A stretch of 32,000 nt of DNA from Microcoleaceae cyanobacterium (GCA_049649525.1 JBARZE010000026.1:40246-72245); one strand, 5' to 3'; positions 3,001-27,380 are shown, numbered from the stretch's first letter. Made by a program: numbers and translations. The notes: generated by a model from the sequence alone, not told the origin.

Positions 3001-4274
3001 ACATCTAAAACAGTGTCCGTAGTTCCCCAACCATCATTAATCTCGTAAATATCAACTCCTGCAATTTGACTGGGATTGACTACAATTCCTTGCAGAGTAA
3101 GAGAACTAGAATAATCAGCGGTATCAATTGCCTCTCCACCATCAAGTAAATCGTAACCAAAACCACCTATCAGTTGATCGTTTCCCCCGTTGCCTCGCAA
3201 TACATCATTCCTGTCTTCTCCTAATAACCCATCATCAATCTGACTTCCTTCTATCCAGTCATCATCTTTAGTACCAGATACAGAAGATGAACCAGGAGCT
3301 TGAATGGGTTCGTTAGGAAAATAAAATCCTTGTGGCTGTAACTCATATATAAAGCTTTTGACAGAAGACTGTGTTTCTGGATATCCTAAATATGTACTGG
3401 GCGACGGATTAGCACCACCAAGAGCGTGACCGTCTGTCTCACTGAAAGCCTTGTCAAATTGGCTAAACAAATTTATTAACGCCGATCCAAACTCAATCGA
3501 ATTTGGTATTAGGAAGTTATCAAATTGAAAGTTAACTAGCGGGTCGTCGGTTTTTTTAATATTGGCAACCTCGTATTCATCAACATCAGAATAACTAGTC
3601 TGAGAACCCATTGCTATAGTTCGGACTCGTGCTGGGTCGAACTCACCTGATTTCAACCCATCTTCTATAAAAAAGTTGCCCTGAGAGTGAGATATAAAAA
3701 CCACAGAATTTTTTTCATTTTTTAGTAAATCTTGTACTTGAGGAACCCAGATATTATTTTCAACATTACTGGCATCTTCCCAGTCAAAAACATACTGAAA
3801 AAAAGCTTCTGCTAAATCGCCAAGTAGTCCTATGCTGGCTATTTTATCTATTACTTCAGAACTACCTAGATATTCGATAGCTGCTTTTGCTCCCAATTCC
3901 AGAGAAGGAAAATCTGTGAGCAAGCTCTCATTTTCTAAAAGACTTCTTGCGTAGCTAACAAATTCATTAAGTCCATCCTCTAAATGCTGTATGGCGGACT
4001 CATTATGATGCCAAATGTACTCAATAGAACTCGATGAGTCTGATTGATATGGAGATGAAAAAGGTGATATTCCATCAGAAAAATTTTGACCATTAAGTGA
4101 AGAATCATTTAATTCTGAGAAAAAATTAAACGCATCTCCAACATTTTGAGTGTGATCGTCAAAAGTTTGGTTGGTTCCCCTTAAACCATTTATCCAAAAT
4201 ATATAAGTCTTACCATTGCTCTCTCGAAGTTGATTATAAACATATCCGAATTCTGAATCAGCTTTATATAGCAT
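1..4274 (-). CDS. Large RTX (hemolysin-type Ca-binding repeat) protein with an N-terminal lipase/esterase-like alpha/beta-hydrolase domain; the 3' end runs off the window
   Basis: Absent from the ORF track because no stop codon lies in the window. The reverse frame is open from ATG 4274-4272 to position 1, with AGGAGG at 4284-4289 (9-nt spacer). My translation starts MLYKADSEFGYVYNQLRESNGKTYIFWINGLRG. A nucleophile-elbow motif VVFISHSQGNFF lies at ~3675-3692 (HSQG). From ~3230 downward the frame is continuous GGxGxDxLx nonapeptides, e.g. LRGNGGNDQLIGG and LYGGNGADLLWGDDGED. The last residues are TGGAGQDEFVLVTGEGYQLILDFQVGQDLLQ. Confidence 0.85.
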   Translation of the reverse strand, partial: MLYKADSEFGYVYNQLRESNGKTYIFWINGLRGTNQTFDDHTQNVGDAFNFFSELNDSSLNGQNFSDGISPFSSPYQSDSSSSIEYIWHHNESAIQHLEDGLNEFVSYARSLLENESLLTDFPSLELGAKAAIEYLGSSEVIDKIASIGLLGDLAEAFFQYVFDWEDASNVENNIWVPQVQDLLKNEKNSVVFISHSQGNFFIEDGLKSGEFDPARVRTIAMGSQTSYSDVDEYEVANIKKTDDPLVNFQFDNFLIPNSIEFGSALINLFSQFDKAFSETDGHALGGANPSPSTYLGYPETQSSVKSFIYELQPQGFYFPNEPIQAPGSSSVSGTKDDDWIEGSQIDDGLLGEDRNDVLRGNGGNDQLIGGFGYDLLDGGEAIDTADYSSSLTLQGIVVNPSQIAGVDIYEINDGWGTTDTVLDVEIIQASLYGDVMNGFDHKRDIFYGGDGIDQINGNGGDDFLHGQGGGDIIHGHQGQDEIHGGGGLDFISGGDQSDILYGEDESDKIHGDGGNDYISGGNGWDELQGNGGDDYIDGGEGNDIIHGHQGQDEIHGGGGLDFISGGDQSDILYGEDESDKIHGDGGNDSIYGGNGWDEIEGHDGDDYLRGEGGKDLIFGGNGDDNITGGDGDDEIWGFYGNDLIFGDSGFGHDSIYGEYGDDSLYGRVGNDYISGGDDQDLIFGEEGIDQLEGNSGDDSISGGLGNDAIAGNDGNDNITGDEGEDNISGGLGNDAIAGNDGDDNITGDGGDDQITGDGGDDIIEGNDGRDSIEGGLGEDNISGGLGNDTLQGNQDNDILKGDGGKDLIDGNQGDDFIEGNNGDDTLSGGLGRDELYGDNGNDNINGDAGKDSLYGGNGADLLWGDDGEDIVFGNDGEDTLSGGEADDRLYGDKDNDTIYGDRGDDFIVGGQGADFINGGDGDDTASFYNSDSGVIADLTTGGSGPSGDSQGDRYEEIENLEGSEFDDRLIGDNQDNKLSGLGGNDYLDGRDGDDSLDGGLGDDNLVGGKGDDSLMGREGNDDLDGQAGDDFLDGGKGEDALLGEAGDDTLYGQADADDLDGGRGDDYLDGGLGDDFLSGREGKDQLFGRDGDDYLSGGSGDDTLKGEAGIDALYGEGGKDILYGGIGKDSLFGGNHNDFLDGEADDDYLEGGDGNDDLYGRQGEDSLYGGKGNDFIWGNDNPDSLWGGLGHDILDGGNGNDLLQGGDGQDEVWGQAGIDNLNGGNGHDLLDGGEDDDFLSGDAGNDKLYGRQGLDYLTGGEGKDSLWGESGNDTLSGEMGHDYLDGGEDNDFLDGGDGKDILLGDDGNDLLSGGSDNDLLDGGDGQDTLSGGDNNDQLYGQAGEDSLTGDAGQDTLDGGLGNDTLTGGEDGDRLIGGDGNDLLSGGVGVNTLTGGAGQDEFVLVTGEGYQLILDFQVGQDLLQ
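2027..2188 (-). repeat. In-frame tandem duplication inside the RTX gene, period 81 nt (27 aa), each copy carrying a HIP1 site
   Basis: catcgcctgtaatattgtcat...gcgatcgcatcattaccta starts at 2027 and again at 2108. The HIP1 sites at 2062 and 2143 are exactly 81 nt apart. Confidence 0.85.
2483..2861 (-). repeat. In-frame tandem duplication inside the RTX gene, period 216 nt (72 aa, 8 nonapeptides)
   Basis: Segment 2483-2645 is near-identical to 2699-2861 (cccaaccatttcc...gaataatatc), with only a few substitutions seen by eye. Confidence 0.85.
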
Positions 4275-4822: not shown

Positions 4823-6260
4823 ATGACTCCAAAGCAATTTGAAATTAAGTTCAATAACTTATCATCTAGAAAAAAGGAGATATTAGAAAAACTATTAGCA
4901 GGAGAGAGTGATAAGACAATCGCTAAATCACTCAATATAGTTGAAAATACTGTTAGACAAAATATTGCTAGTATTTGCAATACTTTTTTAGGGAAAGCAG
5001 TTATTTCGGGTAAATGTAGGCGCGATGAATTAGTTGATATCTTCCAAAGACATAAGCCTGAATGGGTGAATTTGGATGATGATATTGAGGATCAAGTAGA
5101 GATTGATTTAGATCAAAGTTTTGATATTTCAGATAATAGTACTTCGGTTTTAATTAGTGATAATTCTGTTAATTCGGAAGGAAATCAAGAAAATAATAAT
5201 GTTGAAGAGAATAGAGAAAGTAATCAAATTGAAAAAACTTTAAGGGAGAAAACCAATTGGCAGCAAAAAAGACTATTTGGTATTGATAAAATACTTGATA
5301 AATTGGGGGATAATCTCCGAAGTCCTGATGATTATTGGTTGATGAGTTTGACGGGTGCAGGCGGAATTGGTAAAACGTCTTTAACTGAAAAATTAATTAG
5401 TGAATATGGGGAAGATTGCGGTTTTGTTAAGTTGGCTTGGACTACAGCAAAAAAAAACTTATTTAGCGGCGGATATGTCGGTGCAAATCGAAAATAATAG
5501 AAGAGATATTAATGCAGATAGTATTATCTATGATATTGCTTCACAGCTTGAGATTAATTTACCACCTGCTAACAAAGATCACTTCAAGGCACTGCAAAAA
5601 AAGTTACAAGCAGATCCTTATTTAATTGTGATTGATAATTTAGAAACGGTATCAGAATATGAGCGTCTTTTGGATAGATTTAATCCTTTTCAACCCGAAT
5701 GCAATATTAGACCCAGCAAGATAATTTTGACTTCTCGTAAAGATGTAAAAGCGAATAATTGTGCAGCCAGAGAAATTAAATTGAAGGGTATAGATCCCTC
5801 AGCAACTTTAGAGATGATTCGATATCAAGGTCAAGAATTAGATGTGATTCAACAGGCTTTAGATGAAACATTATATCCAATATATGATAAAACACAGGGC
5901 AATCCTTTGATGATTTTATTGGTAATAAATTTATTGAAAAAATATGATGAGCCGTTAGAAAGAATATTTCAAAGATTTGACAAAGAGCAAAATATTCAAG
6001 CTTTTTTATATGAAGAATCATTAGATTCACTCTCTGATAGTGCGATACGGGTTTTAAATTCGGTAGCTGAATATAGTCCTAATAGTTTAATTTCTCGCTT
6101 GAATATTCAAGAAACATCCGGTTTAAATGATGATGAATTTACACAAGCTATCGCAGAATGTAGCAAATCTAATCTGTTAGAAAGTAGTCAGAGTATTCAA
6201 TCAGAATCTAGATATTCAATGCATAGTTTACTTTATGAGTTTTTAACAACATATTATTAA
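4823..6260 (+). pseudogene. N-terminal LuxR/GerE-type HTH fused to an NB-ARC-like STAND P-loop ATPase, split into two ORFs by a frameshift in an A9 run (5449-5457)
   Basis: HTH: LSSRKKEILEKLLAGESDKTIAKSLNIVENTVRQNIASI. Walker A LTGAGGIGKTSL lies in ORF 4823-5497. Walker B YLIVIDNLE and KIILTSR lie in ORF 5400-6260. Removing one A from the 9-A run joins ...KLAWTTAKK to TYLAADMSVQIENN. Confidence 0.75.
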
Positions 6261-16265: not shown

Positions 16266-17147
16266 GGACGTGCGAAGAAGTAGAAGTTTTTCTACTTCCT
16301 GGGAAATGGAATTTGAGGAGGAGAAATCTTTTTTGATGTCTGATAATCCGCTTTGTTCAGATATTTCAACTTGTTCTAGGGTGGCAAAAATCCGCACTTG
16401 GTCGGGTTCGGCTAATGGGGCTGTATTAAAATTAATAAATAATTTTTCTTGAGCAATCAAACTGTTAATTTTATCAGTAGTTATTTCTGATTGAGTTAAT
16501 AGTAATTGGGTATAACTTATTCCGGGCTTGGCTTTAACTAATGATAATATGACTGCTTCTAGAGTATTGTTTTCGTCTAAATTTTGTCTTTGAAAATAGG
16601 GTTCTAACCATTGATAATTTCTTAACCGAATGGTATTGGATTCGAGGTCTGTTCTGATATAATAATTAAGTCCGTATTTTTGAGCGTATTCTTCTCCTGG
16701 TGGACAATGCCAATTTCCCGTTTCATTTTGGAGATAGCGGTGGGGAAGAGGGTTGTGCTTTTTTGATTAATTCATTAATGGGTTTAAATTCTTCCCATCT
16801 GGCTTCTGTTAATCCTATTACGAAAAAATCAGGGGTATGTGCTGTTCGTACTCTTCGACCACTTTTGGAAATGTAATTTAATTCTATTGGTGGCGGTTGG
16901 TCGTAATATTCTAAAACTTCGTGATTATGCTCTAATTTGTCGATGATATGTGCTAATTCGCCCCGATGGGATTCAAACTGAATAGTTTGACCCATTTTTT
17001 CACTACAATATTTCCCACAAACGTTGCCGTAATTCCCTTGTACTCTCCGCGATGGTGGCAGGCGCGAATTTGAGTGATTAGCTGACGGGTAGCTTGCGGT
17101 AGTTGTAGTTGGCTACACCATTGCTCAAATTCTTCTTCTGTGAGCAT
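16260..17147 (-). pseudogene. tnsA: TnsA-like (Tn7-family endonuclease subunit) gene remnant with at least two frameshifts
   Basis: Three reverse-strand pieces. (1) MLTEEEFEQWCSQLQLPQATRQLITQIRA. (2) After a shift at ~17055-17065, PPSRRVQGNYGNVCGKYCSEKMGQTIQFESHRGELAHIIDKLEHNHEVLEYYDQPPPIELNYISKSGRRVRTAHTPDFFV. (3) After a shift at ~16745, RYLQNETGNWHCPPGEEYAQKYGLNYYIRTDLESNTIRLRNYQWLEPYF. No tnsB or tnsC follows. Confidence 0.65.
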
Positions 17148-17866: not shown

Positions 17867-19226
17867 ATGAAAAATACGATTATGACCAATACCGTTAAAA
17901 AAGCATCTTCTTTACCTCCAGGAAACTTAGGTCTACCTCTCATTGGCGAGTCTATCCCATTCTTCAACGATTCAAATTTTATTGATAAGCGTCAAAAAAA
18001 GTACGGAAAGATTTTCAAAACTAATATTTTTACTCGCCCTACCATAGTCATGATAGGCTCCGAAGCCAACCGATTTTTATTTACCAACGAAAATAAATAT
18101 TTTTCTGCGACTTGGCCTGCTAGTACTAAAACTTTGTTAGGAAAAAATTCTCTATCTGTGATAGGAGGAGCTATGCACACTCAACGTCGTCAGCTCATGT
18201 TTGAAGCTTTCAAACCTAGAGCATTAGCTAGCTATCTACCCACAATAGAAGCTCTGACAACTCGTGATCTCGAAAAATGGACACGCATGGGGACTTTAAC
18301 CTGGTATCCCGAATTGAGAAATTATACTTTCGATATTGCAAGCAAGTTATTCGTCGGTAAAGATGGGGGGTCGCAAACAGTTTTAGGAGAGCTATTTGAG
18401 GAGTGGTGTAATGGCTTATTTACTCTTCCCATACGTCTTCCTTGGACGAAATTTAGTAAAGCTTTACGGGCGTCGCACCCTAATGCTAGAAGAAATTGAA
18501 AAAATTATCTTGAAGCGTCAGAAAGAAAAAGATTTAGGGGAAGATGCTTTAGGAATTTTATTGCAAGCTAAAGACGAAGAAGGAAATAGTTTATCTTTAG
18601 AGGAACTCAAAGACCAAGTACTTCTTTTATTATTTGCAGGTCACGAAACTCTTACGTCTGCTTTAGTTTCTTTTTGTCTATTGATGGCGCAACATAGAGA
18701 AATATTCACTCACATTTGTACAGAGCAAAATCGACTAGGAATAGACAAACCACTCAACCTCGATAATTTAAAAGAAATGGTTTATTTAGAGCAAGTTCTC
18801 AAAGAAGTATTGCGTTTCATTCCTCCAGTTGGTGGTGGTTTTCGAGAAGTCATAGAAGATTGCGAGTTTAATGGTTATTCAATTCCTAAAGGTTGGGTGG
18901 TGCAATATGTGGTGGGAAAAACTCATCAAGATAGAGAAGTTTATCAACTTCCAGAAGAATTTGACCCCGAGCGCTTCAGTCTAGAAAGAGCAGAAAATAA
19001 AAACAAAATCTTTAGTCATATACCTTTTGGTGGTGGCGCTAGAGAGTGTTTGGGTAAAGAATTTGCTCGGTTGGAAATGAAAGTTTTTGCTGCTATGTTG
19101 GCACGTCATTATGAATGGGAACTTCTTGCAGACCAAGACTTAACAATGGGTGCAAGTATTACTCCACATCCCCGTGATGGTTTACAAGTAAGTTTTAAAA
19201 AGCAGCAGTGTTCAGCTTCACAGTAG
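17867..19226 (+). pseudogene. Cytochrome P450 (CYP120-like) split by a frameshift near 18470
   Basis: Heme-thiolate motif FGGGARECLGKEFARLE, I-helix LLFAGHETLTSA, and an N-terminal LPPGNLGLPLIGES. ORFs 17867-18499 and 18396-19226 overlap. The sense switches between …WTKFSKALRA and RRTLMLEEIEKIILKRQ. Confidence 0.85.
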
Positions 19227-20892: not shown

Positions 20893-21487
20893 GCGATAGA
20901 CTGGGCGGTAGAGCAACGCAATTTACGCCGCTATGTTGCAGAAATTCATTCACAGTTGGCGTTTCAGAAAGATGATTTCAGTCATGAGCCTTGTCTTAGC
21001 AGTATCGCAGCGTCGGGTGTAAGTGACAAAGTTATTGAGCTTGACACAGTTCGACGCGATAAAGATAACACTCGATCTGCCCTTTTGCCATCATCGGATT
21101 TGAAACCTAGTGAACCTGTAACCACAACAGTAGCGACTGCTAATATTTCTCATAAAGTTGTCGATATTGAGAAGAAGGAAGTGAGTCAGTCTCTACCTGC
21201 ACCCTTCACTACTAGCTCATTACAACAAGCCGCTGGAGATAAATTAAATCTAACGACAAAAACAACGATGAGTATAGCTCAGAAACTCTATGAATCTGGA
21301 TTAATTACTTACATGAGAACGGATTCTTGCTCATTATCTGAGGAATTCTGTTCAGCAGTAAAAGCTTATTTGCAACAACACGACTCACAAAATCTCCCTG
21401 AAGTTATGACTCAACATCGTAATAATAAATCGGCTCAGGAAGGACATGAAGCGATTCGACCCACTCATATTGAGGAGACTCCTGAAC

Positions 21488-22668
21488 CAGAAATGTTGAA
21501 TCGGTCGAGGAATCTATCTAAAATTAGACACACTACACCTATTATCAGCAAATTTTGTCAACAAAAAACGCTCCTTAGGTAACCAATGAACATAGCTGAT
21601 GTTTTCACACATAAAAGCCTGTAAATAACGCAGCTTGTCTAATAATTTATTTCCAAACTCTTTAGGAATTATGACTAATTGCAGCAACACGTAAGCGATT
21701 AAACAGACATAGATTGGAATAGTGATTCTATTAGTATTTTTAGTGATTAAACGGTCGAGTTTAAGATGCATCTTTAAGAACTTCCAGAATAATTCTATTT
21801 GCCAACGTAATCGATCAGATTCTCCCACTTCTTCATTACTAATTCTTTCTACTCCTGTTTCAGGTAAATTGGTAACAAAACGAAATTCAGTTTTGCTTTC
21901 TATCTCACAAAAATTGACGACTCGGGCTACCACTTGCTGACTACCTGTTCCTACTAATAATTGACTATTGTCCAACATTTATAGCCGAATATTGTTTTTT
22001 ATTAAGAATAAAAAATATCTTTGAGTTTCACTCATTAATTTTTCAACTCTTGACAGGCTTGAAAATCCTCTGTCCATTAGACTAACTCCTTTTGATGGAG
22101 TAGCTTCTATCCTAGAGTCTCCATACTTACTATCATGACCTTGGCCAAAATGAATTCAAATACCTCCTGGTTCTGCCGTCAATAAATTCAGACCAGCAAA
22201 CAGTTTGACTTGGTAAAAGTCTTGAGACCATAATAGTTTACTTGTTCAAGTCACAATAGTTGAATCCAATGGGAATAATACTAACTTATCTGACTGTTTT
22301 TTATCAGAAAGTTTTAACTTTTTTCTCAGCTTTAAAAATAAATTATAAAATTGAAGTGGGTCTCGATTTTTGCGCTTCTTTAGAGAAAGTTGAAATATCT
22401 ACCTTTATGCCCCGCACATTTAGGCGTTTAAATAGGCTCCTCATACTCGCGATTGCTTTGATCAAGGGCAAAATTTAGCCAGGTAGAAACAAATAGGAAT
22501 GAACTCAGGACTGGATAATCATCTTGAGGAAGCTCTCCTAGGAGATTTTTGACGAGGTGAGGAAAGTTTGATACCATACAGCTATTAGTTTTTTGAAATT
22601 CATAAGCCTCCAGTCTATCAGATTAGAGGCTCTTTTTTAAGTCTTTTCACTAACATTCAACACTTCTG
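21488..22668 (-). mobile_element. IS4-family insertion sequence (1181 bp) with a decayed DDE transposase, 14-bp terminal inverted repeats and a 9-bp target-site duplication
   Basis: IRL is cagaaatgttgaat (21488-21501). IRR, reverse-complemented, is cagaagtgttgaat (22655-22668). The TSD ctcctgaac occurs at 21479-21487 and 22669-22677. Transposase pieces on the - strand include PLDSTIV, LMDRGFSS and RLRWQIELFWKFLKMHLKLDRL (the DDE blocks), with several frameshifts and stops. Confidence 0.85.
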
Positions 22669-22817
22669 CTCCTGAACATTTAAGTTCATCACTTCAAGGG
22701 CAAGAATTACAGTTGGATGAACTGATTTGGAGTCGGGCGACCGCATCTCTATGTAAGCCTGCCATAGTAGAGAAAACTCAGGTGAAAATAATTGCAGGTG
22801 AGCAGGGCGAAGCCCTT

Positions 22818-22964
22818 GGAAGGCAGAAGGCAGAAGGATGATCCCTCAAACTTATCCTGCTTAGATACAAGCCCTGACTTAAGAAGTCGCTGTAAGTTTA
22901 GTGGGAGTCCAAGCTCCTTCCAAACCAGTGACCCTCTGCCCTCCTCCCTCTGCCCTCTACCCTC
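22818..22964. repeat. Short insertion (147 bp) bounded by inverted heptamer-repeat arms, (GGCAGAA)n and (CCCTCTG)n
   Basis: The left arm is ggaaggcagaaggcagaagg (22818-22837). The right arm is ccctctgccctcctccctctgccctctaccctc (22932-22964). It interrupts the topoisomerase between …VKIIAGEQG and YEYHFLLKGNRI. Confidence 0.65.
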
Positions 22965-23250
22965 GTATGAGTATCATTTTCTGCTTAAGGGTAATCGAAT
23001 TGTAGAGTCTTGTTATGCTAAATATTGGCAGAATTTAGCAGAAGAAAAAGACTTACCTGAATTTATAGTTGGACAGACTTTAGAGTTAGAGAGCGTTCGT
23101 TTAAGTCAACACAAAACTGAAGCGAATAAACGATTTACTGAGCCGAGTTTGGTTAAGACTCTGGAAAAAAATGGTATAGGTCGCCCTTCAACTTATGCTA
23201 CTATTATCAATACTTTAATTGATAGAGCTTATGTGACATTGATTGAACGA

Positions 23251-23471
23251 GGGCAGAAGGCAGAAGGCAGAAGGCAGAAGGATTATAAATTAAGAGATTC
23301 AAACTCGCCACTAATTGTAGACGATCAAATCAAAGATTTTAATAGGGATCTTGTATCTAAAAGTATGAAGCGCGACAATGCAGTCTTAGAAGAAACCCCC
23401 ATGAGTGATTGTCGTAATAAGGGAGAAGAAAAATCAAACCCTCTGCCCTCTGCCCTCTGCCCTCTGCCTTC
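23251..23471. repeat. Second insertion (221 bp) with the same inverted heptamer-repeat arms but an unrelated interior
   Basis: The left arm is gggcagaaggcagaaggcagaaggcagaagg (23251-23281). The right arm is ccctctgccctctgccctctgccctctgccttc (23439-23471). It interrupts the topoisomerase between YVTLIERG and KKNLVVTELG. Confidence 0.65.
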
Positions 23472-24357
23472 AAAGGCGTTGGCGTAGCCTCTCCGCCAGG
23501 AGAAAGCCTGACAAGAAGAATTTAGTCGTAACAGAGTTAGGCTTGAAGGTTGATGAAATTCTATTTCAGGTGGTTCCAGATATTATTAATCCAGGTTTTA
23601 CAGCTCAACTTGAAAAGAATTTAGATGAGATTGCCGATTGTCAATTGAATTGGGAGTAATGGCTAATTGATTGGAATACTCAAACGTTTCAACCTGCACT
23701 GAATCGGGGTAATCAAGTGATTGAGCAAGTCATTTCTTAACAATTAACAGAGTTCGATTGTCCTATTTGTGGTGCTAAGTTGAAGAAGCATCAATATATT
23801 AAAAATAAAGAGTCGAAAGTGATGCTACGTTGTTCTCAATTGGGTAATTCTGATTGTAAAGATGTGGCTTATTTTCAATCAAGGGATTTGTTTTGGAGTC
23901 CTAAATATGGAGATTTGCCGGGGCAGGTTAAACCTCAAAATCAGAATTTGGCTAAGGTTAAACCCGCAACTAAAACTAATACTCCTGTTTCGGGAACAGT
24001 ATCTAGAAGCCCTAAATTAAGGAAATCTCTGTAGTTAAGTGTGTTGCGATGGCGTTGTATTGCGTGACTCAGCTTTTATGACGTAATTCTATTGCCTACA
24101 TCAAGTTTGCTGTTAGTAATATCTTCACGGGGAATATTCCTGTAGTTATCTATCTACTTTTCATTCCCTTTATCACCCCTTGAGATCTCTCTATTCTAGT
24201 AATGAGGTTCTATCTCATAAACCTTTGCAAACATTATCATGCTAGTAATACTTGGAAACAAAGTTGAAGAACCGCCTTCTTGGGCTATTTAGTAATATGC
24301 CTAATTAGTTACTATTAGATTAAGTCTAATTATAAATCAGAGAAGTTGCATTACTTA

Positions 24358-26271
24358 CTATAAACCTTCTCGGGCACCATGAGATAAAAGAAATTCAACC
24401 ATATTTCTATTCTTTTGTTGTACAACTCTATGTAATGGACTATATCCCTGAGCGTCTCGAATATTAATATTCGCCCCATAGGTAACAAGAAGTCTGATAA
24501 TCTCATCATTGCCCAACTGTTGACAAGCAAGAGTAAGAGGGCTACAACTATATCTATTCGTTAAATTGACACTTGCACCAGAAGACAAAATATATTTTAT
24601 TGTCTGTCTATGATTACCTTGCACTGCTTCACATAAAGCACTATTTCCTACTTGATTTATATGATTAATATCGGTATTATATTGAGTTAGAAGCTCTACA
24701 ATATCTTGATGCCCTAAACGGGCTGCCCAATATAGAGGAGTGTTACCATATTTATCTTCTGTGTTGACATCTGCACCATAACTAATCAAAAGCTCACCAA
24801 TATCTCTACAGCTTATGTAACTTGACTCATAACTTACAATTGCCACTTGATGCAAAGGAGAAAACTCAAATTTTCCTGTCTTTTCATTGACTCTTGCACC
24901 CTGATTGAGCAGAAGTTCAATCAAAGTTTTATTTTTATACTTACGTCCAATCGCTGTAATCAACCATGAATCTCCTTTTGACAATCCTTTTGTTAATCTA
25001 GAATTAACATCTATTCCCTGTGCGAGATAAGACTTGACTAATTCTATATCCCCAAGCATCAGAGCAATATCTGGTTCTGTAACAGCATTATTATCTAATA
25101 GAAGTTGAGCAATTTTCTTGTGCTCATTAGAAACTGCTAAGTATAGAGGAGTGCAGCCATCTTTTGCTCTGGCATTGATTTGTGCTCCATTAGTAATTAA
25201 GAGTTCAACTATATTCTGCTCTCCTCGTTGGGAAGCAATATGCAAAGGAGTATAACCGTTATTATCTACAACGTCAATGCTTGCACCATGAGCAATTAGG
25301 AATTGTACAATACTCTCATTCTCCTGTGCAACTGCTATGTGTAATGGACTCAAATTTTGTCTACATCCGCTAATATTAACCTCAGCACCATAGGCAACAA
25401 GAACTCGAACAACTTCATCACCACCTTTACGCTGTAAAGCACGCAGAAGAGGAGTAAAACCATTATTGTCTGTTAAATTGACTTCTGCCCCGTGCTGCAA
25501 AAGAGATCTTAGTGTGTCTGGACAATGATTTTTGGCTGCTCCAAATAATGCACTGGCGTTTTCTTTATTAAGGATATTAACATCAGCTCCGCAATCTAAC
25601 AGAAGTTCTACAATTTCCCGATTTCTTAACAAAGCAGCCTGATGTAAAGGGGTATGACCTCCTGTAGCTTTAGCATTAACATCAGCACCATGAGCAATCA
25701 AAAGGGAGCAAATATCTAGACAATCTATAGCTGATGCTCGATGTAGTGGAGTAACATTATGAGGTTCACTCCTCTCTTGAACATTTGCCCCCAAATCTAA
25801 TAGAAGTGCAGCCATAGCTCTGTTTCTGTTTGTGATAGCTGTCATCAGCCATGACTTACCCTTGTTATATCCTTTTTTTAACTTAGAGTTTACATCTACT
25901 CCCTTTTGTATATATTGCTTGACCAACTCAACATCTCCAAGCATCACAGCGATGTCTGGCTCCATTGTGGCACCATAATTTAGCAGAAGTTTAACAATTT
26001 CCTGATGCTGACCCAGAGCTGCTAGATATATAGGAGTACAGTCATCTTCTGCTTTAACATTAATCTGTATTCCATAATTCAGCAGTATTTTCACTACATG
26101 TATGTGTCCTTGAAAAGATGCTAGATGCAAAGCAGTTTGGCTACGGCTGTCTCTAGCAGAAATATTAGCTCCATTAGCAATCAGTATATTAACAATTTCT
26201 CCATCGCCCTGGTAAGCAGCAATAAGCAATACAGAACCAGTTTTTCTTTGAAAGTTAAACATATTACTCAA
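24358..26271 (-). CDS. Ankyrin-repeat protein (637 aa, ~18 repeats) with an internal ~110-140-aa block duplication
   Basis: ANK consensus recurs throughout, e.g. GHTPLHQAALLRNREIVELLLDCGADVN and GYTPLHIASQRGEQNIVELLITNGAQIN. No signal peptide is visible. Confidence 0.9.
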   Translation of the reverse strand: MSNMFNFQRKTGSVLLIAAYQGDGEIVNILIANGANISARDSRSQTALHLASFQGHIHVVKILLNYGIQINVKAEDDCTPIYLAALGQHQEIVKLLLNYGATMEPDIAVMLGDVELVKQYIQKGVDVNSKLKKGYNKGKSWLMTAITNRNRAMAALLLDLGANVQERSEPHNVTPLHRASAIDCLDICSLLIAHGADVNAKATGGHTPLHQAALLRNREIVELLLDCGADVNILNKENASALFGAAKNHCPDTLRSLLQHGAEVNLTDNNGFTPLLRALQRKGGDEVVRVLVAYGAEVNISGCRQNLSPLHIAVAQENESIVQFLIAHGASIDVVDNNGYTPLHIASQRGEQNIVELLITNGAQINARAKDGCTPLYLAVSNEHKKIAQLLLDNNAVTEPDIALMLGDIELVKSYLAQGIDVNSRLTKGLSKGDSWLITAIGRKYKNKTLIELLLNQGARVNEKTGKFEFSPLHQVAIVSYESSYISCRDIGELLISYGADVNTEDKYGNTPLYWAARLGHQDIVELLTQYNTDINHINQVGNSALCEAVQGNHRQTIKYILSSGASVNLTNRYSCSPLTLACQQLGNDEIIRLLVTYGANINIRDAQGYSPLHRVVQQKNRNMVEFLLSHGAREGL

Positions 26272-26490: not shown

Positions 26491-27255
26491 TTATATTAAG
26501 CCAGATAGAAAAGCTGATTTAATATGATGATTCTTAACAAATCCTTCGATTCGAAAAGTTATTCCTGTAAAAGGGTCTATTCCTATACCATCCCATGCAC
26601 CTGTTGGAATGCATTTTTGTTCATATGCATTACCAATCATGTCTATCACACCATAGTCATCTAAATCTATTGGGAAGAAGCTTGATACTTTTTCTAATGA
26701 TGGATGGCTTGGAACTCGAGATTTTGCGGTAAAAGGTTCGTCATAAGCGTTTTCAGGGGGTTCAGTAACCCATTCGTAATGCACCGTTTCAATAGCACGT
26801 GCTGTTGAGTGAAAACCAGAAAGCTCGCCAACTCTAACAGAAGGGAAAAAAATATGATCTTCGTCTATTGTGTAATTACAATTGTTTTCTTCATTCAATT
26901 CTAATACAACTGCTCCTATCATAGATAGACCAACAAGGATGTCAAGTAACTTGAAGGTACTCACCTGCTCTGTGACAGAAATAAATCCTGATGGGTCAGT
27001 ATAGTGAATTGGATTCGCATTTCCATATAAGTACTTATGTAACGTAATTGGCTCAGCTACTCGACCCTCATAAACATCTCGACGAGTAAACCGTCCAACA
27101 TTCCGGTCATAGTAGCGATCGCGTAAATAATACTGTCCTAAATTCCCATCAAATTGCTCCCCTGCAAACAGATAGTTATTCTCAACATCACCCGTAGAAT
27201 CTAATAACTCGCCAAAGGCTTCATAGTTATAGTCAGCAACGCCGGATTTTTTGCT
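26491..27255 (-). pseudogene. Orphan Rhs/YD-repeat C-terminal tip: the end of the Rhs core plus a ~170-aa variable C-terminal (toxin-like) domain, 5'-truncated with no start codon for the core part
   Basis: The reverse frame is open from 27255, just after a TAA. It reads SKKSGVADYNYEAFGELLDSTGDVENNYLFAGEQFDGNLGQYYLRDRYYDRNVGRFTRRDVYEGRVAEPITLHKYLYGNANPIHYTDPSGF. That is the Rhs-associated core end (…GRF…D…LHxYxYxxxNPxxxxDPxG). A unique tail follows, which is track ORF 26491-26964 starting at GTG. Confidence 0.75.
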
Positions 27256-27344
27256 TTATTATGAGAGGAAAATTAATTAGATACTGGTCAACAGAAGTAA
27301 TCGGCTAGCCATAAATGCCTGTAATTAAGGAGTGAAAAATAATT

Positions 27345-27380
27345 AAGAAAAGGTGGGTTTACTTTGCAGCAACCCACCCG
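27345..27380 (-). terminator. Rho-independent terminator closing the two-gene operon
   Basis: On the minus strand: GGGTGGGTT-gctgcaaagta-AACCCACC followed by TTTTCTT. The perfect 8-bp stem spans 27352-27359 and 27371-27378, ~37 nt after the stop at 27417. Confidence 0.75.

Follow-up and report, generated by a model that had tools for sequence, protein, structure and literature searches.

An Rhs tip without its body

We analyzed a 32,000-nucleotide stretch of a Microcoleaceae cyanobacterium genome (GCA_049649525.1, JBARZE010000026.1:40246-72245; hereafter the window), focusing on a short reading frame that resembles the tip of an Rhs toxin and on the ankyrin-repeat gene that follows it (Table 1). 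With a probability of roughly three in four, we read the locus as an orphan Rhs C-terminal toxin (Rhs-CT) cassette of a filamentous marine cyanobacterium, in which a predicted EndoU ribonuclease (RNase) is paired with an ankyrin-repeat immunity protein (Imm-Ank). Its parts are a 91-amino acid (aa) Rhs core that could serve as a homology handle, a module of hydrophobic helix plus EndoU domain, and a tandem-fused ankyrin gene 220 bp downstream on the same strand. This reading is carried by the domain identities, the truncation, the occurrence of full-length Rhs proteins with a window-type tail, and a strict linkage between tail and ankyrin gene.

On the minus strand, positions 27255 to 26494 form an open frame of 254 codons closed by the stop at 26491-26493. 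Its translation from 27255 reads SKKSGVADYNYEAFGELLDSTGDVENNYLFAGEQFDGNLGQYYLRDRYYDRNVGRFTRRDVYEGRVAEPITLHKYLYGNANPIHYTDPSGF, followed by a 163-aa tail. The NCBIfam model TIGR03696 (Rhs_assc_core) matched aa 11-90 of this frame (26986-27225) and was covered from position 1 to 75 of its 76; at E=1.4e-16 and 60.8 bits, where the curated cut-off is 32.5 bits, this match is far beyond chance. The core end is 55-71% identical to cyanobacterial Rhs core ends, and the YTDPSGF boundary can be read directly from the window sequence. No ATG, GTG or TTG comes earlier in the frame than GTG 26964, which lies seven codons past DPSGF. The locus therefore holds a 5'-truncated core with no initiation codon, then a toxin tail, as expected of an orphan.

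Similarity to full-length Rhs proteins begins within a few codons of the TAA TAA pair, where the window sequence SGVADYNYEAFG aligned to SGVVTDAYTYDAFG of a 3555-aa Rhs protein from a Phormidiaceae metagenome-assembled genome (MAG; locus L007). When this protein was searched against the whole window by tblastn, the sole match was 27231-26509 (54% identity, E=2e-72), and no YD/RHS repeat array was found upstream of the core end or anywhere else in the 32 kb. As only the tip is matched and a stop pair precedes it, the window piece is a fragment rather than a complete Rhs protein. A Logan assembly of the public run SRR28062651 (L002) is 100% identical over 27512-25339 (2174 bp), spanning the junction. 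The truncation is thus unlikely to be an assembly artefact, with the caveat that this run may be the same data from which the source genome was built.

Searches for a matching full-length rhs gene in genome contigs returned 32 loci, none identical, the best being Desertifilum and Phormidiaceae MAGs at 54-56%. In metagenome contigs, 44 loci matched the Rhs core alone, and none of these carries the window tail. A word-seeded protein search with the core fragment yielded only fragments of 66-170 aa, with at most 82% identity over the aligned part (mostly 55-70%), and so provided no recombination donor. An earlier note on this DNA, made from the sequence alone, had described the tip as a 5'-truncated Rhs C-terminal end in an orphan-cassette layout, with no rhs body upstream and no start codon before GTG 26964. 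The near-complete TIGR03696 alignment, the frame opening directly after TAA TAA and the tblastn result all agree with that description, and the identical assembly speaks against the assembly error that the note had considered.

Table 1. Positions of the cassette parts and of upstream features in the window. Toxin residues are numbered from GTG 26964.
Feature	Position	Strand	Remarks
TAA TAA stop pair	27256..27261	-	Closes the frame just upstream of the Rhs tip; truncation point
Rhs-associated core end, 91 aa, without start codon	26983..27255	-	Ends in the YTDPSGF boundary motif (DPxG[LWF])
Hydrophobic pre-toxin helix FKLLDILVGLSMIGAVVL	26902..26955	-	Between DPSGF boundary and nuclease domain
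Divergent EndoU-type RNase toxin domain (predicted)	26494..26880	-	aa 29-157 of the frame from GTG 26964; stop 26491-26493
Candidate catalytic H37	26854-26856	-	Motif (D/E)xH-[IL]-F
Candidate catalytic H52	26809-26811	-	Motif G-F-H-S
Candidate catalytic K92	26689-26691	-	Motif K-x-S-S-F-F-P
Candidate catalytic S94	26683-26685	-	Motif K-x-S-S-F-F-P
Candidate catalytic S150	26515-26517	-	Motif I-x-[TS]-A-[YF]-P near the C-terminus
Ankyrin-repeat protein, candidate immunity	24358..26271	-	637 aa from TTG 26271; likelier 634 aa from ATG 26262
Terminator-like hairpin GGUGGGUUGCUG/loop/AACCCACC, then UUUUCUU	27344..27379	-	37 nt past the stop of the 634-aa coiled-coil gene, upstream of the Rhs tip
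Coiled-coil gene, 634 aa	27417-29321	-	Upstream of the cassette
Coiled-coil gene, 568 aa	29333-31039	-	Upstream of the cassette

The tail is predicted to be a divergent EndoU domain

A word-seeded database search with the tail recovered three relatives only (P0002, P0027 and P0028). We then used a profile of the window tail and P0002 for a HMMER search of 1.84 billion cluster representatives, which returned 25 proteins at E<=0.001, the last few of them weak matches to multi-repeat proteins. The tail clade is therefore rare. The same profile reached the canonical EndoU_bacteria proteins P0046 (E=9e-5) and P0048 (E=2e-4), which score 58.5 and 87.6 bits, respectively, on the Pfam model EndoU_bacteria (PF14436; gathering cut-off 25.3 bits, profile length 129). 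This model was matched by all four members of a first tail-family alignment and by 11 of 16 members of a larger one (E<=0.01; best 1.2e-24). Three tail relatives pass the gathering cut-off (P0002, 30.5 bits; P0031, 27.1; P0036, 35.1), aligning to profile positions 5-128 of 129, and are 42-54% identical to the window nuclease domain. Against PDB sequences, a single-sequence search with the tail gave nothing meaningful (best E=1.7, to BCCIP), and a four-sequence tail profile gave no match.

Candidate catalytic residues were assigned from conserved motifs. In the family alignment, both histidines, the SSFFP block and the TAYP block line up with canonical P0046 and P0048, while the equivalent of K92 is Lys in P0048 and Gly in P0046. 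The window keeps a His-x15-His-x40-Lys-x-Ser spacing. In coronavirus Nsp15, the corresponding residues are H235, H250, K290 and S294, whose spacing of 15/40/4 is near the window's 15/40/2. The window candidates also fit the H, H, [SNT], [SNT] (plus Lys) active-site pattern of Tox-EndoU, given by Zhang et al. (PMC3482391). A His-His-Lys triad is found in the EndoU toxin CdiA-CT(STECO31), which cleaves tRNA-Glu (PMC9086364).

Structural comparison pointed the same way. The best PDB sequence match of the tail-family profile was a eukaryotic EndoU (9ftw), although not significantly (E=0.23); in this alignment, eHifyPdvrsgelsGFHs stands against EHVFSGEVKKGKVTGFHN, and H37 and H52 fall on the catalytic histidines of EHVF...GFHN. 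An AlphaFold (AF2) model of the tail built from the 16-sequence alignment reached a mean predicted local distance difference test (pLDDT) of 84.4 and a predicted template modelling score (pTM) of 0.73, while a model from four sequences was unusable (pLDDT 35). In a Foldseek search of the PDB with the former, ranks 1-10 were all Nsp15 or XendoU structures with probabilities of 0.72-0.99 (nine at or above 0.87), followed by an abrupt fall to below 0.1. Sequence, motifs and predicted fold thus agree that the tail is a divergent bacterial EndoU RNase domain at the edge of PF14436. The earlier note had held that the tail matches no toxin family that it could name and had proposed Foldseek as a check; the Nsp15/XendoU matches, the motifs and the PF14436 relatives overturn that claim.

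The same note had remarked on the hydrophobic start of the tail. The stretch is indeed present, but it is not special to the window copy. Its position and character are kept in the window, L006, L007, P0002, P0029-P0032, P0036, P0037 and P0042, and full-length Rhs proteins with a window-type tail have a hydrophobic helix of about 20 aa separating DPSG[LF] from the nuclease domain. In P0028, P0034 and P0035, which form a sister clade, a Pro/Thr-rich linker takes its place. The AlphaFold model places a helix at residues 5-25 with low confidence. As it directly follows DPSG[LF] in full-length proteins, the helix is part of the Rhs toxin module, not the signal peptide of a separate gene. A conserved hydrophobic helix ahead of the toxin domain is a mildly new point.

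Throughout the clade two cysteines are retained, C29 (26880-26878) and C118 (26613-26611), which canonical P0046 and P0048 lack. They may form a disulfide that stabilizes a secreted toxin.

An ankyrin-repeat gene accompanies the tail

The gene at 24358-26271, which the earlier note missed, encodes an ankyrin-repeat protein (Ank_2, E=1.7e-110) and is a conserved partner of the tail and likely its immunity gene. ATG 26262 is its likelier start, as it aligns with the MFYS... starts of related proteins. A same-strand ankyrin gene follows the window-type tail in six of six loci examined: besides the window, it lies 69 bp downstream of the tail in L001, 263 bp in L003/L004, 90 bp in L005 and about 120 bp in L006, and in L007 two such genes begin 114 bp downstream. 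By comparison, only one of 30 Rhs-core loci with other tails encoded anything similar to the ankyrin unit, a weak match (30% identity) 8 kb away. By our calculation, this linkage has a Fisher p of about 4e-6, with the qualification that the control set is imperfect because some of its 30 loci have short flanks.

The cassette-linked ankyrin proteins are 47-83% identical, making them true homologues rather than just fellow repeat proteins. In L001, L003/L004, L005, L006 and L007 the genes following the tail encode single units of about 335 aa. The window protein is instead a fusion of two units, each about 318 aa long, which share 46% identity between themselves and 53-59% with the single-unit proteins. 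It therefore resembles the tandem ankyrin genes of L007 joined into one, and it may be a "polyimmunity" fusion with two specificities. The window protein also matches PDC-M72A, a candidate-defence ankyrin model of PADLOC (E=8.7e-96), which may reflect repeat similarity only.

This arrangement agrees with published descriptions of polymorphic toxin systems. The survey by Zhang et al. (PMC3482391) gives the cassette rule of toxin gene first and immunity gene next, recognizes EndoU as an Rhs-borne toxin that occurs in cyanobacteria too, lists ankyrin repeats (Imm-Ank) as an immunity class, and describes fused polyimmunity proteins. As in that class, the window's ankyrin-repeat protein is encoded 3' of a polymorphic toxin domain.

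Full-length parents and other truncated copies

The tail family occurs on complete Rhs proteins. The 3555-aa protein of L007 combines DUF4114, many immunoglobulin (Ig)-like domains, 13 RHS-repeat matches (RHS_repeat, E=2e-121) and an EndoU tail at 3424-3546. Downstream of its gene come two ankyrin genes, encoding 337 and 331 aa, and after them a pair of 5'-truncated rhs fragments of 788 and 782 aa that carry other tails and each precede a small gene of their own. This is the textbook order of main rhs gene, immunity genes and orphans. Window-type tails are also found on two YD-repeat proteins, P0029 (at least 764 aa) and P0037 (at least 1047 aa), and on a further Rhs protein in Desertifilum (L006).

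Truncated copies retain different lengths of the Rhs core. L001 keeps none, its homologue being a 166-aa open reading frame (ORF) with the hydrophobic helix; L003/L004, on a plasmid-like element with relaxase and ParA/ParB, keep about 35 aa; and the window, P0036 and P0042 keep about 70-95 aa. The orphan copies P0036 and P0042 start at the same place as the window copy, just upstream of the TIGR03696 domain.

In L003 (8001-10101, JGI 3300055349) the EndoU tail lies among relaxase, NikA-like, ParA/ParB and DUF3854 genes of a plasmid-like contig, which suggests that such cassettes travel on mobile elements. The 35 or so core residues of this copy belong to a different type of Rhs core end and lead into a Gly-rich and Pro/Thr-rich linker; its C-terminus is diverged, and a 335-aa ankyrin gene follows. 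The 283-aa P0042 joins, in one frame, an Rhs core end, the helix, the first half of EndoU (through GFHST...FEWLD) and ankyrin repeats. Its sequence is best explained by a deletion that joined neighbouring toxin and immunity genes, and that looks to have inactivated the toxin.

Comparison with known systems

The closest parallel is provided by the orphan rhs-CT/rhsI modules of Enterobacteria and the standalone cassettes described by Zhang et al. (2012, PMC3482391). As in those modules, a 5'-truncated rhs keeps the core end up to DPxG, the core has no translation start, the toxin tail is variable and a same-strand gene lies directly downstream; the window tail family also occurs in L007 in the textbook layout. 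Unlike classical orphans, the window tip has no main rhs gene next to it; it also keeps only 91 aa of core, as against about 550 aa in the L007 orphans, and its host is a cyanobacterium. The L007 parent carries DUF4114 and Ig-like domains ahead of its RHS repeats, and neither PAAR nor any other domain associated with type VI secretion was reported in it at E<=0.001.

With bacterial EndoU toxins (PF14436/Tox-EndoU; for example CdiA-CT(STECO31), PDB 5HKQ), which are kin of XendoU and coronavirus Nsp15, the tail shares the His...His...Lys-x-Ser arrangement, the C-terminal [ST]-A-[YF] motif, a two-lobed alpha+beta fold in the window model and a C-terminal position on Rhs proteins. It differs from them in belonging to a peripheral clade, in its conserved Cys pair and preceding helix, and in having an ankyrin protein as partner in place of SUKH, SuFu or Imm28. 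5HKQ was not among the top Foldseek matches of the window model.

The window's ankyrin protein shares with the Imm-Ank and polyimmunity proteins of Zhang et al. (2012) an all-alpha repeat architecture, a gene position immediately 3' of a polymorphic toxin tail, and the occurrence of immunity units in tandem or fused form. However, Imm-Ank was listed with HNH/EndoVII-fold nucleases (Tox-AHH and Tox-GH-E), not with EndoU. The window protein also fuses two diverged copies of one unit, and it adjoins a toxin cassette, whereas polyimmunity genes in that survey usually lie away from toxin genes.

The window cassette is thus an ordinary example of a known cassette type and does not challenge the current understanding of polymorphic toxin systems. 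The EndoU-ankyrin pairing, which is not in the 2012 survey (PMC3482391), is mildly new, and the fused double immunity protein is a modest point of interest. Our analysis gives a seemingly unassignable tail a predicted function and a probable immunity partner, and extends the catalogue of Rhs toxin cassettes by one from a cyanobacterium. Our results also indicate a small, coherent EndoU subfamily, recognizable by its conserved hydrophobic helix, its conserved Cys pair and its ankyrin immunity; it could offer a means of examining how Rhs toxins get across the target membrane and how an EndoU active site is blocked by a repeat protein.

A probably silent toxin and a probable immunity gene

In a full-length parent, the Rhs cage would enclose the toxin, and the aspartyl autoprotease of the core would cut between DPSG and F. 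The freed helix and EndoU module would then enter a neighbouring cell, where EndoU would cleave RNA without metal through His-His-Lys (plus Ser/Thr) and leave 2',3'-cyclic phosphate ends. By analogy with CdiA-CT(STECO31), tRNA would be its likeliest target. The ankyrin protein would bind and block the nuclease.

For the window copy, the sequence suggests a probably silent toxin part, as the core has no start codon, a terminator stands in front and no promoter signal was seen. The hairpin between the coiled-coil genes and the tip folds at -20.7 kcal/mol (z=-3.2 versus shuffles) and had been overlooked by a simple terminator scan. Promoter-like sites in the cassette region numbered 10 versus 12.4 expected, not above shuffled controls. 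The best of them (26945-26918) overlaps ATG 26922, where gene callers start the window ORF (P0001), and on reading the sequence we saw no convincing ribosome-binding site ahead of GTG 26964. The toxin part would persist as a recombination substrate or deletion remnant and, should a main rhs gene exist in the genome, might act as a recombination handle. The immunity part, by contrast with the toxin, is probably active: the intact double-unit ankyrin gene would be what selection keeps, since it could protect against EndoU-tipped Rhs toxins of related strains.

Several points weigh against this interpretation. The window tail itself matches PF14436 weakly (E 0.023-0.068, 14-15.5 bits), below the gathering cut-off and over profile positions 7-100 only, so that its membership is transitive, by way of clade relatives above the cut-off, rather than direct. 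The Foldseek values of ranks 1-10 are modest (E 0.014-0.25; query TM-scores, TMq, 0.42-0.53). At a site where all aligned relatives whose domain end is intact carry Pro, the window copy has Leu (TAYP to SAFL), and its C-terminus is a few residues shorter than in its closest relatives; both changes may mean that this copy is already decaying. The immunity role of the ankyrin protein, which we consider probable, is argued from synteny, and the EndoU partners in Zhang et al. (2012, PMC3482391) are SUKH, SuFu and Imm28, not ankyrin repeats. Finally, no main rhs gene adjoins the tip within the 32-kb window, unlike in classical orphans.

These points bear on how the fragment arose. It is possible, though we doubt it, that the tip is a plain deletion remnant: a full-length rhs-EndoU gene would have lost its 5' body by rearrangement, leaving a pseudogene with no future as a cassette and only the ankyrin immunity useful. 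The absence of an rhs body or of rhs/immunity pairs within 4.7 kb upstream or 26 kb downstream fits such a history, as do the window-only Pro-to-Leu change at a conserved position, the shortened C-terminus, the end of similarity to Okeania 77 bp upstream of the tip, and the broken genes and mobile debris nearby (topoisomerase pieces, DDE transposase, NB-ARC, P450 and TnsA-like sequences). Yet the 254-codon frame has neither frameshift nor internal stop and keeps all candidate catalytic residues, and its truncation point just upstream of TIGR03696, shared with P0036 and P0042, fits a recombination handle. Remnant and orphan cassette would be the same piece, with a different past and a different fate. 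That an rhs body exists and was lost or misjoined in assembly is highly improbable; Rhs loci are repetitive and often misassembled, but the L002 sequence is identical across the junction, and what lies upstream is a well-formed gene end and terminator, 92% conserved with Okeania.

A further alternative places the toxin outside the Rhs system, as a small EndoU RNase that begins with a hydrophobic helix, expressed alone from GTG 26964 or ATG 26922 and paired with the ankyrin protein in a toxin/antitoxin-like or defence module. The coreless L001 homologue with its close ankyrin gene, the gene callers' choice of ATG 26922, the plasmid-like setting of L003/L004 and the PADLOC match, possibly generic as it is, would suit such a module. 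We nevertheless consider it quite improbable, given that the helix also lies inside full-length Rhs proteins right after DPSG[LF], that Rhs core codons are still in frame upstream, and that neither the promoter-like sites, of which the best overlaps the ATG, nor the sequence ahead of GTG 26964 offers convincing expression signals. An extension of the orphan-cassette reading is also unlikely, if slightly less so. It would make these proteins a distinct Rhs-EndoU clade in which the helix is a built-in membrane-insertion or translocation element after the cut site, served by a dedicated family of ankyrin immunity proteins of about 335 aa. The fused double ankyrin protein would then have two specificities, and the orphan tail would perhaps be expressed from an internal start as a membrane-anchored RNase.

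Genomic neighbourhood

Upstream of the cassette, a 3.9-kb block (31240-27332) that includes the two coiled-coil genes and the hairpin has 92% DNA identity to Okeania contigs (L038-L040). Similarity stops at 27332. In Okeania the block has other neighbours on either side, with neither a toxin nor an ankyrin gene among them, so we rejected the coiled-coil proteins as cassette partners. Nothing but this two-gene block is shared, which leaves no empty site in Okeania to compare. At 90% identity or more, the 568-aa product falls into a cluster with Okeania proteins, while the window's valyl-tRNA synthetase has no database relative at that level. GC content is 0.32-0.40 in the cassette and 0.40-0.46 in the coiled-coil block; the cassette resembles the sequence on its other side.

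For the two coiled-coil proteins, Pfam and NCBIfam gave weak matches of coiled-coil type only, PDB sequences gave none, and PADLOC gave weak matches (E >5e-4; 568-aa protein). On visual inspection, both contain a hydrophobic stretch. The block could be a horizontally moving two-gene module, and the pair perhaps a binary helical pore-former.

On the other side of the ankyrin gene, the genome seems plastic and in decay. The gene for a type IA DNA topoisomerase (20956-23659) is broken into at least three ORF fragments, matching Topoisom_bac positions 101-226, 267-359 and 360-407. Between its pieces, on the opposite strand, lies a DDE_Tnp_1 transposase fragment (21514-21978), and short repeated peptides (CPLPS and QKAEGRRQKD) suggest inserted repeat elements. 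Further broken or split genes (4823-6260, 17867-19226 and 16723-16995) comprise a LuxR-type helix-turn-helix (HTH)/NB-ARC gene and a cytochrome P450 gene, each divided between two overlapping ORFs (for the P450 gene, likely through a frameshift), and a 90-aa fragment of a TnsA-like endonuclease.

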